From Fidelibacterota bacterium (GTDB lineage Bacteria; Fidelibacterota; Marinisomatia; Marinisomatales; TCS55): a DNA stretch of 38,827 nt. Made by a program: the position numbers. This document shows positions 1-9,000 of this stretch, one piece after another. The DNA lies in contig JBHHTW010000022.1 in assembly GCA_046861385.1 (NCBI GenBank), positions 1 to 38,827 on the forward strand, read 5' to 3'. Position 1 is the first letter of the stretch. Each line of letters starts with the position of its first letter.

Positions 1-3000
1 GTATTATTATAATCATCCAAATGGCAGCTATTGCATCCCGTCGTAATACCCTCATGGGAAAAAACAGCACCTTCCCAAGTAACAAATGAGCTATGACAAT
101 CTTCACAAGTTGTTGCAAAATTTAAATCAATATGATTGGGATCAGTTGTATTGTTGTAATCATCCATATGGCAGCTATTGCATCCCGTCGTGATTCCCGT
201 GTGAGCAAATGTGGCTCCTACCCAAGTCGTTGTGGAGGAGTGACAATTTTCGCAAGTGGTCGTAAACCCCAGTGTTTCATCATGAACCGGGTTCAATGCG
301 TCGTGATAGTTCGTCAAATGGCATGTTGCACATGCCAAGGATAATTGATGGCTGAATATAATTGGTATCCATCCAGATTCATTGTGGCATTTATCACAAT
401 ATTCCAAAGGATATCCATAATCAGTATGGTTCGGATCTGTGGTGCTCTCGTAGGAAGATAAATGACACCCGGAACTCTCACAATTGACTGATAAACCATT
501 ATACACATTGTCTACATGGCAAAGTTGACAATCAACTGGCACATGTAGACCATGAAGAACAAAACCGGTTTGGGTAACTGAATGTGTAAAGGAATTGTCC
601 TTCCAATCTTCAGTGGAATGGCAGACTTGGCAATCGGAGCTAATATTATTATTCCCGTGAGGAGGATATGCAGATGTTTCATACTCCGGAGAATGGCATT
701 GAATGCACGATTCACTGCTGAATGATGTATGGGAAAAAATAGATTGCTGCCAGGAAACTGTAGTATGACATGCCTCACAGAAATCAGCGATATTATGAGA
801 ACCATGGTCATAAGAAGATATAGTGTAATTTGTCTGAGCTAATCCAGTAGATATATGGCACCCGGCACATGTCAAGGGTAAATCATAATTTCCAGCCGTT
901 CCATGGCATTGTTCGCAATCCGTAGTGATATGGCTTCCGGTTAATGGGAATGCAGTCAAATCATGATTAACTTCGGCTCCAAGCCACTCTATGGTTGTAT
1001 GGCAAATCTCACAATCTTGATTAAAGTTTTTCTCATTATGATTTGGTGCGTTGGGGAATTGACTTAATCCGGTCGCTTCGTAATCCTGTTGGTGGCATGA
1101 CCAACAATCGTCCTGAGTTCCCTGGAATACCCCGGAATGACACCCAGAGCATTCCGCGCCGAAGTGAGCACCCGTCAAAGGCCATTGTGTTCGTATATTG
1201 TGATCAAATGTAGATGGAAACCAGGAGGAGCGGTTGAGTTCGTGGCATTCCTGGCAGTCCGTGCTGATCCTTGCCTGAAAATGAGATGGGTTTTCTGCAT
1301 TGTTATACACATTTATATGACAGCTATAACAATCAGATGGCGTTACATCAAAACGTGTCAAATCATCATGGCAGAAACGGCAATCTACAGAACGATGAGC
1401 GCCCATGAGGGAAAAACGTGTTTCTTCATGATCATATATTCTCTGTTCTACTATCCAGGTATTTGATGTATGGCACCCACTGCATTGATCTCCTAATTGG
1501 CTTTTGTGAATATCCAGATGGCACGAATTACAGGAAGCCGAAATATGACTAAATCTATGTTTTTCGCCAAGGGTAGCCCCTTTATGACAATTAGAACAAT
1601 TGGCAATCGTATGGACACCTTCCAGTTTAAATGCCGTTTTACTATGATCGAAATTGCTTAACTCAAGCTTATCCCATCCGCCTGTTCCGTGGCAATCGCT
1701 GCACTCATAACCTGGGACGGCCAACTCCTGCCCATGTAGTAGTGTTAGTAACATTATTGTAAATATTATTCCAACGGTAGTTAGTTTTAAAATATTATTG
1801 TCATTGCCTGCCCGCCTCTTATCACTTATTAAAAAGGTGGCAGGCGGGCAATCTTCTTCTATAAGCAAATCCAAGGAGATCACTTTGTCGCAAGCTCCTC
1901 GTGATGACATATTTAGAATTACTGATGAATACTTTTGATTCATATAATTTTCATATTACTATATTTGTAATCGATGAGTTTCATCTACCTGATTTCTTCA
2001 GTAAATGTATGGCAGTCACTACACTGACGGGGTGTTGGAATATATCTGGTAAATAGTCCGTTTATATCTTTTTCTGATTTATGGCATTCATTGCACTTCA
2101 CATCTTGATGTCGGCCATCCAGTGGAAAAGAGGATTTTTGATGATCAAATTTTGTAAGGGTAAACAAATCATTTGTATGACAGGATTCACAGGCGTTATC
2201 AAAATTTTTCATAAATTGATTTCGATGCACATCCTCATGACAGACATTACATGAATACCTCGTCCACGTAAAGCGTGTTGTTGTAATCCCTGGTTTGGGT
2301 TGGTAAGGTTCGTGGCATTTATTGCAAGGGACGGCCAGATGCGAACCATCTAATTGTAACCGGGCCAATTGATGCATTGATGTGGTAAAAGATGATGGAA
2401 TAAAACCATTCACATTATGACATGGTGTGCAATCACCGCCATCTTCCCGTCTCGTAAATTGGTTATAATGTTTGTCCTCGTGGCATCGATCACAGCGATC
2501 ATATTCTGGCAACCGGCTTACTTCAGTTTTCTGGTGGCATTCATTGCATTTCACATTGGAATGTTTCCCATTTAAAGGATACTTTGTTTGACCATGATCA
2601 AAGGGTTTTAGATCTTCTTTCCAGTCTACAGTTGTATGACATGTTTCACATGTGGCTCCAAAAGTTCCTTTATGAAAATCTTCGTGACAACTAGTGCAGT
2701 TTTCAAAAGCGAGACCCGTTAACTGCCACACCTGATTCGGGCGATCTTCTTGAGCTGGGTGACATTTAATACAATCAACTTTCTGATGAGCACCGGTTAA
2801 GAGAAACTTTGCCCGGGTATGATCGAAATCATTGATAGCAAGGTTCCAATCTGAAGTGTTATGGCAGGATACACAATTATTAGAGACCTGATTCTGATGG
2901 ATATTCTCATGACAGCTATGACATGTCTCTTCCAACCCGAGAAATGTTCTGCCCAATACATTATGCTGAGGTCGGTCACTGGCCCAATTAATAATAGAGT

Positions 3001-6000: not shown

Positions 6001-9000
6001 TATTTCCTTCCCGCTCACGCGATGGGGTATTTTAATATAGATATACCTTCCAATAAATCCGCTTAATGCAACCGCCACCATTGACCAATAGGATATGGAG
6101 ACGAGACCTCCAAATTTAATGGCTGTGTGAAACGTAACCAGAATCGGTCCGGCAATCCCTAAAAAAATATGGTAATTCAGCCAAGTCGGCAATTTGCCCC
6201 ATTTTCGAAAAAACTTTACCCGTTTTCTGATGGAATAAATAAACATCAGCAGCATCATGCCTCCGCCCACAATACCCAAGCCATGCCCGAACGTACCACC
6301 CGGTTTCCACAATTTGTGTATCAGTTTAATATGCGGCCGCTCTGCAAGAGGAGATAAATAGTAAGGGCCAATATTTATGATTATCCATGCAGAGATAATT
6401 ACCAACAAAAATGTGGTTATGGTTAATATTATTTTATGAATTTTATTCATTAAAGGAAAATCCCGAATTGTAATTTAAATAATTACGACTATTACCTCTT
6501 ATTATTTGTTAACTCTATTATTTATATGCGATTACAATTGTGATTGATTAAACATTTTTCGTTAATTTTACCAATGGATATACCCATACACCCGATACTG
6601 GTTCATTTTCCAATAGCATTAATTACTTCTGCATTTTTCTTTCAAGCACTGTATGTATGGAAACTCCCATTAATTTGCCGAACAATGAGTATGTGGCTTT
6701 TGGGATTAGGCGCACTATTAAGCATACCTGCGACAGTATCCGGGCAGGAGGAGGCTGTATATGTAGGCCAATTCGGATTAGAAACGATTGTATTAGAAAC
6801 AATCCAACTTCATGAATTAATGGCAAATTTAGCGACGTGGGGGAGCTTGATTACAGTGCTGGCTTGGGTTTATTTCTTTTTAAATAATCCCCATGATGAT
6901 AGAATAGATCGCTTGGCGCTTGCCTTTTTAGGTTTGCTGACAGGGTTCGTAATTTTTACCGGGTATTTGGGAGGACTTTTATCTCACGGTCATGGTGTTG
7001 GTATGCCTTAATTGTATGAATCAATGACTTATTATACTTACGATGTCATCGTTCTTGGGGCCGGTATTAATGGATGTGGCATCGCTCGGGAACTCTCGCT
7101 TCGCAGTAAAAAAGTACTGGTTATTGATAAATCTATTATTGGCGGCGGAACATCTTCAAAATCCTCAAGATTGATCCATGGCGGATTGCGATACTTGGAG
7201 TCCTTCCAATTTAACTTAGTCAAAGAATCACTTTTGGATCGAAAAGAATTGACAGAATTATACCCGGACTTGGTTCGATTTCGTCCTTTTTACCTTCCGG
7301 TATATAAATCCAGTCCCAGAAATGCATTAATCATTTGGACGGGTCTTAAGTTATATGATTTTCTATCTGACAAATATACAGATCATCAATCTAAAATCAT
7401 TCCCAGAAAAGAATTTTCACTCCATGCCCCCTGCTTAAAACAAGAGAATCTCCGCGCTGTTTTTAAATATTATGATGCCAAAACCAATGATTTAAAATTA
7501 ACCCGGCAAGTGGCAAAAGATGCAGAAAATCTCGGATGTACTATTGTTGAAAACACAAGCGTTAAACAAATCAAAAATAATCAATCTCATTTTACCATTT
7601 CCTCAAACCATGGGAATTTTCAAGCACCGGTATTGATTAATGCGACGGGTCCCTGGATTGATGAAGTCAACCATCAATACCATTTATCTGCTAAATATCA
7701 AATCAGAAAAATCAGCGGGATACATATAGTGATACACGGTCTTGTGGCAAACGATCTCTTATTTATGCAGACAAAAGGAAAGCGAATTTTTTTCATCATT
7801 CCCGAGCCGGAACTAAATCAAACATTGATCGGAACGACAGAGCGAGAAGAAGTTATTTCACCCGATGACGTTATCGTCAATCCGGAAGATGTAAAATATG
7901 TTTTGAAAAATATTAATGAGTATTTAAACACGGACCATCAAATTCACGCATCCGATATTCGTCACACATTTATTGGCATTCGACCGTTGATTTCCCATAA
8001 AGAAAATCCGACAGATTTATCTCGAGAGTATGAACTAGACCTCCATAAAATAAATGGGACTAAACTACTCCATGTTTTTGGTGGGAAAATGACCACCTTT
8101 TTATCCCTCGCTCGAAAAGCAGCTGATTTGATACGTTAATATTATTATGCGTATCTTAAAGAAAGTTCTGCATACTAATCATCCAATTAGTCTTTCGCTC
8201 CTGTAGTTTTTTATTCATCTCTAATAATATTCACCAAAAATGCTTTGGCATTTGTGGATGAAAATAACCCATATCCATTTTCAATGTTTGACTCCGGCAG
8301 AAGATATTGATTTTGACCCACAGGATCACCCTTGAAATAGTTATAATAAGCATCGTCAGTCGTTTCAACAATGATTAGATGCAGACCGTAATAATTGAAA
8401 AAGAGCCAGCTCATTGAAATGGGCGGCGTGGATGCTTGCCACGTGAATGGATTGATCCGGTATGGGTCGCCATTTTCGTCACGTAAATAATCCTCTTTCC
8501 ATATTTTATAAACAAGCGATGTATCATAAATAAGATTTACAAATGTTGAATCTCTCACTTGGTTCCGGTTAAAATCAGAATATGAGTCCGTTGAAATTGT
8601 GTAGATGCCATCACCATTCAGATCATTGAAAGGTTCTAACCCCCTTTGAGCGGCCTCCAGGGCTAAAGTGGTTATTTTGATGGCTGTGTTTTGGCTTTCT
8701 TCAAAGTCCAGTAAAAAGAGAGGGAATGAAGCAAAGCTTTCTGTATAGCATCCGCCATTTTTATAAACAGCATTTGAAATGGAATGAAAATCAATAAGAT
8801 TGATCAAAGTATCGGGTTGATCCAAAAAATGAATCCATTCGAATTCGAAATTATCAACATTTACAGATGGAACGACCAATTCTTTATTATCACAAACGTA
8901 TGATTGATTTACCGGACTAAAAAAATCCATACCGTCCGGGATGGTTGTTTCAGCCGTCACTTCATAGGAACCATAGTTGGCGCTCAAAATATATGTCTTA

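Follow-up and report, generated by a model that had tools for sequence, protein, structure and literature searches.

A widespread operon for two polyhaem cytochromes that combines a membrane-anchored ferredoxin-flavoprotein with a putative di-haem-b membrane protein

Genes for polyhaem cytochromes raise the question of where their electrons come from and where they are delivered. The descriptions of the conduits PCC3, PCC4 and Ptd that are considered here assign neither a donor nor a direction. The window analysed here, the 38,827-nucleotide contig C11 of a Fidelibacterota bacterium, contains at one end an operon that a preliminary description read as a conduit from NAD(P)H to polyhaem cytochromes. 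An operon of five co-directional minus-strand ORFs is borne out by the ORF coordinates (Table 1). Recounting reproduced the earlier CxxCH counts of 17 and 22, for which 2000 shuffles per protein gave a maximum of three, and the family assignments Fer4 and Pyr_redox, NAD_binding_1, and Cytochrome_C7 were recovered. The operon had also been set apart from a Qrc-like locus on contig C15, and the two cytochromes are indeed distinct from that locus, because their tblastn matches are limited to C11. A promoter and terminator scan gave scores no better than those of shuffled sequences, and an Rfam search returned zero matches.

Table 1 Features of the operon and of its probable continuation
Feature	Position	Strand	Length or basis
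IMP, inner-membrane di-haem cytochrome b-like protein, predicted	5578-6450	-	290 aa
FdFP, membrane-anchored ferredoxin-flavoprotein	4265-5578	-	437 aa
FNR-like flavin reductase, accessory	3399-4256	-	285 aa
17-haem c-type cytochrome	1985-3406	-	473 aa
Large polyhaem cytochrome, at least 22 CxxCH	3-1943	-	647-aa ORF, open at contig end
~210-bp insertion with palindromic element	1764-1972 (limits approximate)		absent in three close relatives
147-bp tandem repeat (49 aa, two haems) at assembly break	1-294	-	repeat analysis
β-barrel (porin-like) gene on contig C85	C85 2833-4026, 5' end missing		synteny with relatives

The inner-membrane protein (IMP) has five predicted transmembrane (TM) helices and a helical, cytoplasmic insert formed by residues 138–256. 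It carries W90-x3-H94-x13-H108 and W259-x3-H263-x13-H277 on TM3 and TM5, and SGFIG (residues 130–134) on TM4, as PCC3 requires; the IMPs of PCC3 (He 2017, PMC5566968; Slit_0867-0870, Slit_1446-1449) are likewise about 300 residues long, with five TM helices, an SGxxG motif, and two W-x3-H-x13-H motifs. The motif histidines are kept in 108–109 of 109 homologues. Four invariant TM histidines together with a positive-inside topology suggest one haem on each side of the membrane, with H94 and H263 as predicted ligands inside and H108 and H277 outside. By its motifs, the IMP is a putative di-haem-b protein of the PCC3/PCC4 type. A structure model with a pLDDT of 93 (a single-sequence fold with a pLDDT of 60 was discarded) gave zero Foldseek matches at E ≤ 0.001 and no VIA-align score over background, and relatives of the IMP were not found in a PDB sequence search. 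Among haem proteins, the fold closest to that of the IMP belongs to the superoxide oxidase of E. coli (5oc0; Z 7.9, rmsd 3.7, 135 aligned), with which unrelated bundles tie.

The ferredoxin-flavoprotein (FdFP) consists of an N-terminal TM helix, a dicluster ferredoxin, and a YpdA/TrxR-like FAD/NAD(P)H domain. Its domains are probably cytoplasmic, because 11 K/R residues directly follow the TM helix. The ferredoxin, reported earlier as 2x[4Fe-4S], has the dicluster motif (CxxCxxCxxxCP and CxxHxxCxxxCP); however, the ligands are seven cysteines and one histidine rather than eight cysteines. The second cysteine of the first cluster is replaced by Ser, Thr, Ala, or Val in 51 of 75 homologues; therefore, the cluster type and potential vary, which counts against a function as a conduit. 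The flavoprotein, described earlier as thioredoxin-reductase-like, is not itself a thioredoxin reductase, since none of the 75 homologues contains the CxxC motif and TIGR01292 scores 82 bits against a cut-off of 343. The missing CxxC and a Y-R motif at the dinucleotide site (73 of 75 homologues) fit an NAD(P)H oxidoreductase of the wire type. The closest PDB sequence match, 7a7b (E 1e-41), belongs with the YpdA/Bdr and TrxR-type ferredoxin-NADP reductases, which also lack a redox CxxC. FdFP differs from YpdA/Bdr in its circular permutation, in which the segment matching YpdA 277–294 precedes the GxGxxG motif, and in its fusion to a ferredoxin and TM anchor; it scores 164 bits against the TIGR04018 (YpdA/Bdr) cut-off of 340.

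FdFP accompanies the IMP in 79 of 80 loci, counted per strand, and the sequence of the exception stops 722 bases past the IMP. A single-chain fusion of an FeS-flavoprotein with the IMP occurs naturally (P0001) and has both His motifs intact; an 805-aa Atlas cluster with 56 members aligns along the entire IMP at TM 0.80. Three other apparent IMP-cytochrome and IMP-flavoprotein fusions (P0132, P0153, P0107) were rejected as frameshift artefacts with the TM5 motif absent and the middle scrambled. Distant IMP homologues are likewise flanked by a multihaem cytochrome on one side and, on the other, by a cytoplasmic flavo-FeS reductase that is of another type than FdFP: a 2Fe-2S/FNR enzyme on plasmids of Methylophaga and Qipengyuania, and a cNMP-FeS-flavoprotein in Sphingobium. 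The FdFP-IMP pairing, the natural fusion, and the sandwiched distant homologues all argue for a conduit that starts from NAD(P)H. The complex prediction of IMP with FdFP scored 0.01. Loci L048 and L086 encode IMP and FdFP with no cytochrome across 4 and 8 kb downstream, which counts against the conduit.

The FNR-like protein (NAD_binding_1, E 2e-11; motifs RxYS, GSGIxP, and CGP, and a C-terminal aromatic motif) had been listed as part of the operon. It is present here, but it is not a fixed component: its gene occurs in six of the 80 loci, in six of the 20 relatives inspected within the order, and in 14 of 101 genomes of the order, all 14 of them IMP-positive. The gene is accessory and dispensable.

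The quinone pool could supply the cytochromes instead. The IMP would then oxidise quinol or reduce quinone, FdFP would serve as an NAD(P)H:quinone dehydrogenase, either alone or together with the IMP, and the wire would tap the quinone pool for extracellular respiration. A quinone role has been hypothesised for PCC3 and PCC4, whose IMP motifs are matched here (He 2017, PMC5566968), and PCC3 is described with four genes, none of them for a cytoplasmic reductase, so its IMPs need another donor. MsrQ binds ubiquinone (PMC12525009). The IMP of the operon itself matches neither Ferric_reduct (PF01794) nor Ni_hydr_CYTB; weak matches occur in 18 and 13 of its 109 homologues, respectively, and those to Ni_hydr_CYTB favour a quinone function. 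So does the rest of the genome, which encodes a haem-copper oxidase, two molybdopterin enzymes, and a NiFe hydrogenase. However, a quinol donor would make needless a dedicated flavoprotein that is kept in all but one locus and is sometimes fused to the IMP. Overall, the quinone-mediated route appears unlikely.

The 17-haem cytochrome is built of three-haem modules in tandem and contains 38 histidines, so bis-His ligation of all 17 haems is possible. Its signal-peptide-like N-terminus suggests a periplasmic location. A PDB search with this protein found no relative at E ≤ 1. Orthologues with 17–23 haems adjoin IMP/FdFP in other phyla. The large cytochrome, which is cut by the contig end as reported before, has one C-x4-CH in addition to its 22 CxxCH motifs, and its four closest complete homologues contain 27, 25, 23, and 20 haems. 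Profile matches to ExtN/ExtO, HmcA, and DmsE are far under cut-off (DmsE/MtrA model, 40 bits versus 192; TIGR03508 below cut-off). The insertion lies between the ancestral ATG (position 1984) and the part of the large cytochrome gene that encodes the signal peptide. It contributes the initial ~56 codons of the ORF, and the start codon is uncertain here; because the start is disturbed, the copy in this genome may be impaired. The insertion forms two hairpins (z = -4.8), and its palindromic repeat has matches on eight other contigs of the genome.

The preliminary description identified no porin. However, all 20 relatives examined have a β-barrel gene after those for the cytochromes, and in this genome it is located on C85, across an assembly gap. 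The protein is 80% identical to that of a congener, and the downstream genes are common to both. We infer from this synteny that the operon resumes in C85, ~1.6–1.7 kb beyond the contig end, with the β-barrel gene, and the gap between C11 and C85 is expected to hold an 8-haem gene. Among contigs of four runs, representing two samples at most, none spans C11 to C85. The protein is assigned as a probable barrel because all but one of the 53 complete copies terminate in F, L, I, or Y and because its segments alternate between polar and non-polar residues. Pfam and NCBIfam hold no family for it, and a search with five barrel sequences at E ≤ 1 gave two weak, unrelated matches and none to MtrB/PioB. 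Of 58 loci, 55 encode one conserved cap domain at the C-terminus of the last cytochrome before the barrel, which, together with the barrel signature, also argues for a conduit.

The gene set is conserved more strongly than claimed initially. The IMP is matched in 31 of 101 genomes of the order, including this one. In 20 of the 30 others, those with longer contigs, the neighbourhood was surveyed, and all 20 have IMP, FdFP, a 17–20-haem protein (split into two frames in one relative), the large cytochrome, and the β-barrel. The 8-haem protein noted in relatives is present, with 8–9 haems, in 19 of the 20. Among the 48 loci with at least 9 kb downstream, FdFP and a cytochrome with at least 13 haems occur in 48 and the barrel in 47; the sequence of the remaining locus ends inside an 87-haem gene. 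The gene set is found in Marinisomatota, Bacteroidota/Ignavibacteria, Gemmatimonadota, and others, and the named homologues found are from the FCB group or Acidobacteria. At least 587 stretches with the gene set are present in GTDB genomes, and in another phylum 35 of 79 genomes are positive. The cultured type strain Emticicia oligotrophica DSM 17448 carries the complete set on a plasmid, where EMTOL_RS21090/21095 encode FdFP and the IMP. No RNA dataset is among the sequencing runs listed as matching.

The electron path might end in the periplasm or serve a non-respiratory task, as an electron store, as a redox sensor, or as a source of reductant for metal uptake, detoxification, or the repair of the envelope, with the barrel anchoring or exporting the giant cytochrome. 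A lipobox search of 159 cytochromes gave two doubtful matches, and the number of haems is highly elastic, as in a capacitor, ranging from 30 to 88 per operon, with 112 in one ORF. The carriers include Saprospiraceae and Emticicia, which are aerobic heterotrophs, a further point in its favour. In ES-1, PCC3 genes are down-regulated on Fe(II) (PMC8788666), and related porin-less clusters have been judged unlikely agents of extracellular electron transfer (EET) (He 2017, PMC5566968). By contrast, the almost constant barrel gene directly after the conserved terminal cytochrome module is the usual porin–cytochrome layout, and we regard a periplasmic end as distinctly improbable.

The conduit of the preliminary description fits the gene anatomy and the FdFP-IMP pairing, and stays a reading of sequences. 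In the proposed chain, NAD(P)H would reduce the FAD of FdFP, whose two Fe-S clusters would hand single electrons to the IMP at the haem b that faces the cytoplasm. Transfer to the second haem b would bring the electrons to the outer side of the membrane, from where they would pass to the 17-haem cytochrome in the periplasm, the giant repeat cytochrome, and an 8-haem/cap module docked in the β-barrel. The acceptor, which would lie in the outer membrane region or outside the cell, may be a metal, a humic quinone, or a partner cell. The FNR-like protein would be an optional second electron entry. The principle would be that of NOX/MsrQ, an NAD(P)H oxidoreductase with a haem-b membrane domain, joined to a PCC3-like wire. 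In MsrQ, there is a precedent for transfer from an NADH oxidoreductase through haem b to a periplasmic partner (PMC12525009). Outward flow runs to the positive side of the membrane and thus would spend, not build, proton-motive force; therefore, the wire would be a redox relief valve or surface reductase rather than a respiratory coupling site. The chances that this outward, non-conserving chain operates as drawn are about even.

The reverse direction, in which an external donor such as Fe(II), a sulfide mineral, or a partner cell would feed electrons through the barrel and the quinone pool would relay them to oxygen, or FdFP to NAD(P)+, is very unlikely. PCC3 and PCC4 have been found in Fe(II) oxidisers (He 2017, PMC5566968). 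The runs that match best carry the label hydrothermal vent metagenome, although they are probably the source sample and hence one observation, and an oxidase subunit I-like gene, judged by eye, lies 6 kb downstream in two relatives. However, by established potentials, a plain wire would have to carry the electrons doubly uphill, both towards the negative side of the membrane and to a potential of about -320 mV. Furthermore, the named carriers are mostly lineages known as heterotrophs.

Related designs are already in print, and the wire resembles the untested systems PCC3, PCC4, and Ptd. Like PCC3, to which it was compared by description and motifs, it has two very large repeat-built cytochromes, with 26–30 residues per haem in PCC3 and 28 (17-haem) and 27 (large cytochrome) here, and a β-barrel gene. 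It is not classed as PCC3 because of the additional, near-obligate flavoprotein; furthermore, PCC3 has been described in Proteobacteria and with four genes, whereas the hosts here are the FCB group and other phyla, and 8-haem and FNR genes are added in Marinisomatota. No proteobacterial PCC3 sequences were found among the plasmids, homologue names, and cluster members. PCC4 (He 2017) and Ptd (Elbon et al., bioRxiv 10.1101/2023.11.21.568154) combine the same kinds of parts in one operon, namely a porin, multihaem cytochromes, a ferric-reductase-like IMP, an FAD/NAD(P) oxidoreductase, and a 4Fe-4S protein; therefore, a cytoplasmic flavo-FeS input has a precedent. Their cytochromes have 4, 5, and 10 haems, in contrast to 17, at least 22, and, in relatives, 8 here (30–88 per wire), and their FeS protein, which includes a cNMP domain, is not part of the oxidoreductase, whereas both are joined in one membrane-anchored protein here.

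The porin-less clusters of multihaem cytochrome, IMP, and redox protein (He 2017, Table S6) have an IMP with two H-x13-H between the redox protein and the cytochrome. A profile comparison shows homology between the IMP and plasmid clusters whose sizes match (83–108 bits), and the initial haems in the 17-haem protein weakly match their cytochrome heads; however, these clusters have 7–10 haems (18 in one), usually no porin, and zero matches to the three-haem repeat motif versus 5–7. In the MsrQ-Fre/NOX/FRD superfamily, an NAD(P)H oxidoreductase feeds a His-ligated haem-b domain and electrons leave the cytoplasm (PMC12525009). The IMP differs in lacking a Ferric_reduct match and in its large cytoplasmic insert, its TrxR-fold FeS flavoprotein, and its partner, a polyhaem wire rather than MsrP or O2. 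MtrCAB/MtoAB and Geobacter Pcc share the general porin–cytochrome layout, except that the barrel here has no MtrB/PioB match; they obtain their electrons from quinol through CymA/ImcH/CbcL. The cluster that Berger 2021 described from Bacteroidetes was set aside by eye as another family (first 400 characters; no IMP/flavoprotein, no repeat motif), and, judged by their descriptions, neither the peat EET1-4 (8–13 haems) nor the Verrucomicrobia clusters (8 haems) correspond to this operon.

This form of the wire seems to be unnamed: no name for it was found in open-access text, although the supplements of MHCscan (PMC11475568) and of the preprints may list the family. Since a candidate donor is encoded in the same operon, it is testable whether NAD(P)H reduces the wire without quinones. 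The gene set is common, matches no curated family, and is present in a cultured type strain. If the proposed chain is correct, many marine, sediment, and wastewater heterotrophs would have an unrecognised electron exchange with their surroundings. A bolder and more tentative proposal, possible rather than probable, is a quinone-independent form of EET in which heterotrophs dump cytoplasmic reducing power from a NOX-like NAD(P)H module via 30 to more than 100 haems to the barrel. Because this form would need no known Mtr/Pcc gene, current marker sets would miss its carriers, and electron delivery to minerals, humics, or neighbours would be widespread in Marinisomatota, Bacteroidota, Ignavibacteria, and Gemmatimonadota.

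The five-gene operon of the preliminary description is real and conserved. Its gene positions were confirmed, and the genes are closely packed on one strand. The earlier CxxCH counts of 17 and 22 in the two cytochromes also stand; 2000 shuffles per protein reach at most 3. The inner-membrane protein (IMP) has a match in 31 of 101 genomes of the order, 20 of which, picked for long contigs, were fetched. The order of flavoprotein, 17-haem protein and large cytochrome noted earlier in relatives extends to all 20 genomes, in which IMP is followed by the membrane-anchored ferredoxin-flavoprotein (FdFP), a 17–20-haem protein, a large cytochrome with 16–40 haems, and an open reading frame of 510–570 residues. 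A gene for an 8–9-haem protein lies 5' of this frame in 19 of the 20 operons, and the FNR-like gene is present in six. Across the order, 14 of 101 genomes have the FNR-like gene; all 14 are IMP-positive, and in some (G058, G072 and G011) the gene is on a different contig from the operon. Two close relatives also carry the DUF2231 gene that adjoins the operon here, in the same neighbouring position; in other relatives, a membrane or TPR protein of 160–210 residues is encoded within the operon.

Locations of features in the window, on other contigs of the same genome (C) and in loci of relatives (L)
Feature	Location	Strand
Large cytochrome	3–1943	minus
Palindromic repeated element, two hairpins, z −4.8	1764–1972 (limits approximate)	
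17-haem cytochrome	1985–3406	minus
FNR-like protein	3399–4256	minus
FdFP	4265–5578	minus
IMP	5578–6450	minus
DUF2231 membrane protein	6544–7011	
Ordinary genes: glycerol-3-phosphate dehydrogenase-like, TonB receptor and DUF4249, peroxiredoxin, ThiI, MsrB, SulP-STAS-cNMP, photoproduct-lyase-like, PAS kinase, peptidases, RND efflux set	7012–38825	
Mono-haem Haem_bd protein; 59–61% identical homologues between IMP and FdFP in L022 and L026	23355–23834	
Haem-copper oxidase, two molybdopterin enzymes, NiFe hydrogenase, cytochrome c maturation genes	C89:30012–31424, C6:39552–41702, C15:76284–77570, C71:11116–12675, C80:70930–74774	
ORF of 2735 residues with 112 CxxCH, orthologous operon	L130, from 9359	
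ORF with at least 87 CxxCH, orthologous operon	L099, 14294–20836	
8-haem protein, cap domain with extra C-x3-CH and C-x5-CH motifs	L021, 8488–9288	
Pseudoalteromonas protein whose flavoprotein domain has the same circular permutation; the surrounding glycosyltransferase cluster encodes no cytochromes	L125, 6941–9295	
Small c-type cytochromes and 573-residue protein, 3' of barrel gene	L023, 517–7821; L024, 268–7587	

The operon is predicted to extend beyond the window. No porin had been identified previously; however, a putative β-barrel gene follows the cytochromes in all 20 relatives, and in this genome it is located at the end of contig C85, where it is 80% identical to that of a congener and has the same genes downstream. 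The gap of approximately 1.6–1.7 kb begins inside a 147-bp two-haem repeat, and no contig spanning it was found. We infer the join of the two contigs and an 8-haem gene in the gap. The 510–570-residue product is read as a β-barrel porin. Polar and non-polar segments alternate along it, and of 53 complete copies, 52 have F, L, I or Y as the C-terminal residue. Searches of Pfam and NCBIfam assigned it to no family; among named Atlas clusters, the closest are outer-membrane barrels (0.86), which is a lead only. Across 58 loci, 30–88 haems are encoded per operon, possibly undercounted at locus edges, and in 55 of them the cytochrome directly before the barrel has the same C-terminal cap domain. 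The extra motifs in the cap domain of L021 may bind further haems or metal. The largest haem count cited in He 2017 is 85 (PMC5566968).

In three close relatives, the large cytochrome starts immediately after the stop codon of the 17-haem gene. The present copy retains the ancestral ATG (1984), followed by an insertion of about 210 bp with the palindromic element, copies of which occur on eight other contigs (C89, C80, C33, C60, C95, C103, C53 and C74) and which we take to resemble a REP/MITE-type element. The frame from ATG 1984 reaches a stop after 14 codons and overlaps the ATG at 1943, from which the hydrophobic core of the signal peptide starts about 55 residues in. Export or read-through of the large cytochrome may be impaired in this strain.

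IMP has five transmembrane helices, on which hydropathy, a structure model and the positive-inside pattern agree. It contains the motifs W90-x3-H94-x13-H108, SGFIG and W259-x3-H263-x13-H277, the four histidines of which are conserved in 108–109 of 109 homologues. He 2017 gives the same motifs for the inner-membrane proteins of the porin-cytochrome clusters PCC3 and PCC4 and likens them to a di-haem ferric reductase domain (PMC5566968). Weak Ferric_reduct and cytochrome b561 matches in a minority of homologues agree with the di-haem reading; in a fold search, the best match to a haem protein, E. coli superoxide oxidase (5oc0), was tied with unrelated bundles. One haem would lie at each side of the membrane. 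Among the matches listed, the nearest named relatives, 73–85% identical, are labelled Neomarinimicrobiota/Marinimicrobia or "uncultured bacterium", which points to a Marinisomatota host.

FdFP begins with a single transmembrane helix; a run of basic residues comes next, then a ferredoxin, and finally a YpdA/TrxR-like domain. This last domain is circularly permuted: the YpdA segment 277–294, which closes the FAD site, corresponds to FdFP residues 124–141, ahead of the GxGxxG motif. By contrast, a Sphingobium relative has the usual domain order. The second cluster motif, CxxHxxCxxxCP, is present in 74 of 75 homologues, and the first cluster is all-cysteine in 24, with Ser, Thr, Ala or Val at its second position in 51. 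The protein had been described as thioredoxin-reductase-like, which holds for its fold; however, CxxC is present in the domain of 0 of 75 homologues. These features indicate that FdFP is an electron-transfer flavoprotein and not a disulfide reductase.

A GTDB scan with IMP identified at least 587 relatives; the best 80, analysed here, overlap with the 20 order relatives and are therefore not independent of them. These 80 come from Marinisomatota, Bacteroidota (including Ignavibacteria and Saprospiraceae), Gemmatimonadota, Margulisbacteria and Zixibacteria. FdFP is encoded in 79 of the loci and the FNR-like protein in six; two loci have IMP and FdFP with no cytochrome nearby. Where at least 9 kb of downstream sequence is available, 47 of 48 loci combine FdFP, a cytochrome with at least 13 haems and the barrel. 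In another phylum, IMP matches 35 of 79 genomes, and among 12 fetched loci FdFP is present in 11, the twelfth copy lying just outside, and the barrel in nine. Plasmid pEMTOL02 of Emticicia oligotrophica DSM 17448 carries ccsA, IMP, FdFP, 23-haem and 40-haem cytochromes, and the barrel. A genuine flavoprotein–IMP fusion was found in a cNMP-type relative; three further apparent fusions were artefacts. The 573-residue protein of L023 and L024 looks, by eye, like cytochrome oxidase subunit I.

The wire and IMP resemble PCC3, and the flavo-FeS input resembles PCC4 and the Ptd operon (PMC5566968, 2023.11.21.568154). The operon lacks one defining feature of each, the four-gene composition of PCC3 without a cytoplasmic redox protein and the 4-, 5- and 10-haem cytochromes of PCC4/Ptd, and is therefore assigned to neither; the comparison with PCC3 is one of gene content and motifs. 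No description of it was found in the open-access literature searched; supplementary tables may list the family.

In the simplest reading, which we consider an even call, NAD(P)H would reduce the FAD of FdFP, and electrons would pass through its Fe-S clusters to the two b haems of IMP, and onwards through the periplasmic and giant cytochromes to the barrel. The same wire could be linked to quinones, a possible but doubtful version. Neither a clear lipobox nor any other indication of surface exposure was seen on the cytochromes of the 58-locus set, which counts against direct outward flow; a periplasmic or non-respiratory role of the wire is, in our estimate, unlikely. Also counting against direct outward flow, Fe(II) did not induce the PCC3 genes in strain ES-1 (PMC8788666), and the role of PCC3 itself is putative. 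Standard potentials indicate that feeding electrons inward to NAD(P)+ along a plain wire would be doubly uphill, making electron uptake highly improbable. Direct outward flow would be downhill as to redox potential and would run to the positive side of the membrane, and thus would not conserve energy. The organism itself, with its oxidase, molybdopterin enzymes, hydrogenase and encoded cytochrome c maturation proteins, is probably a versatile respirer.
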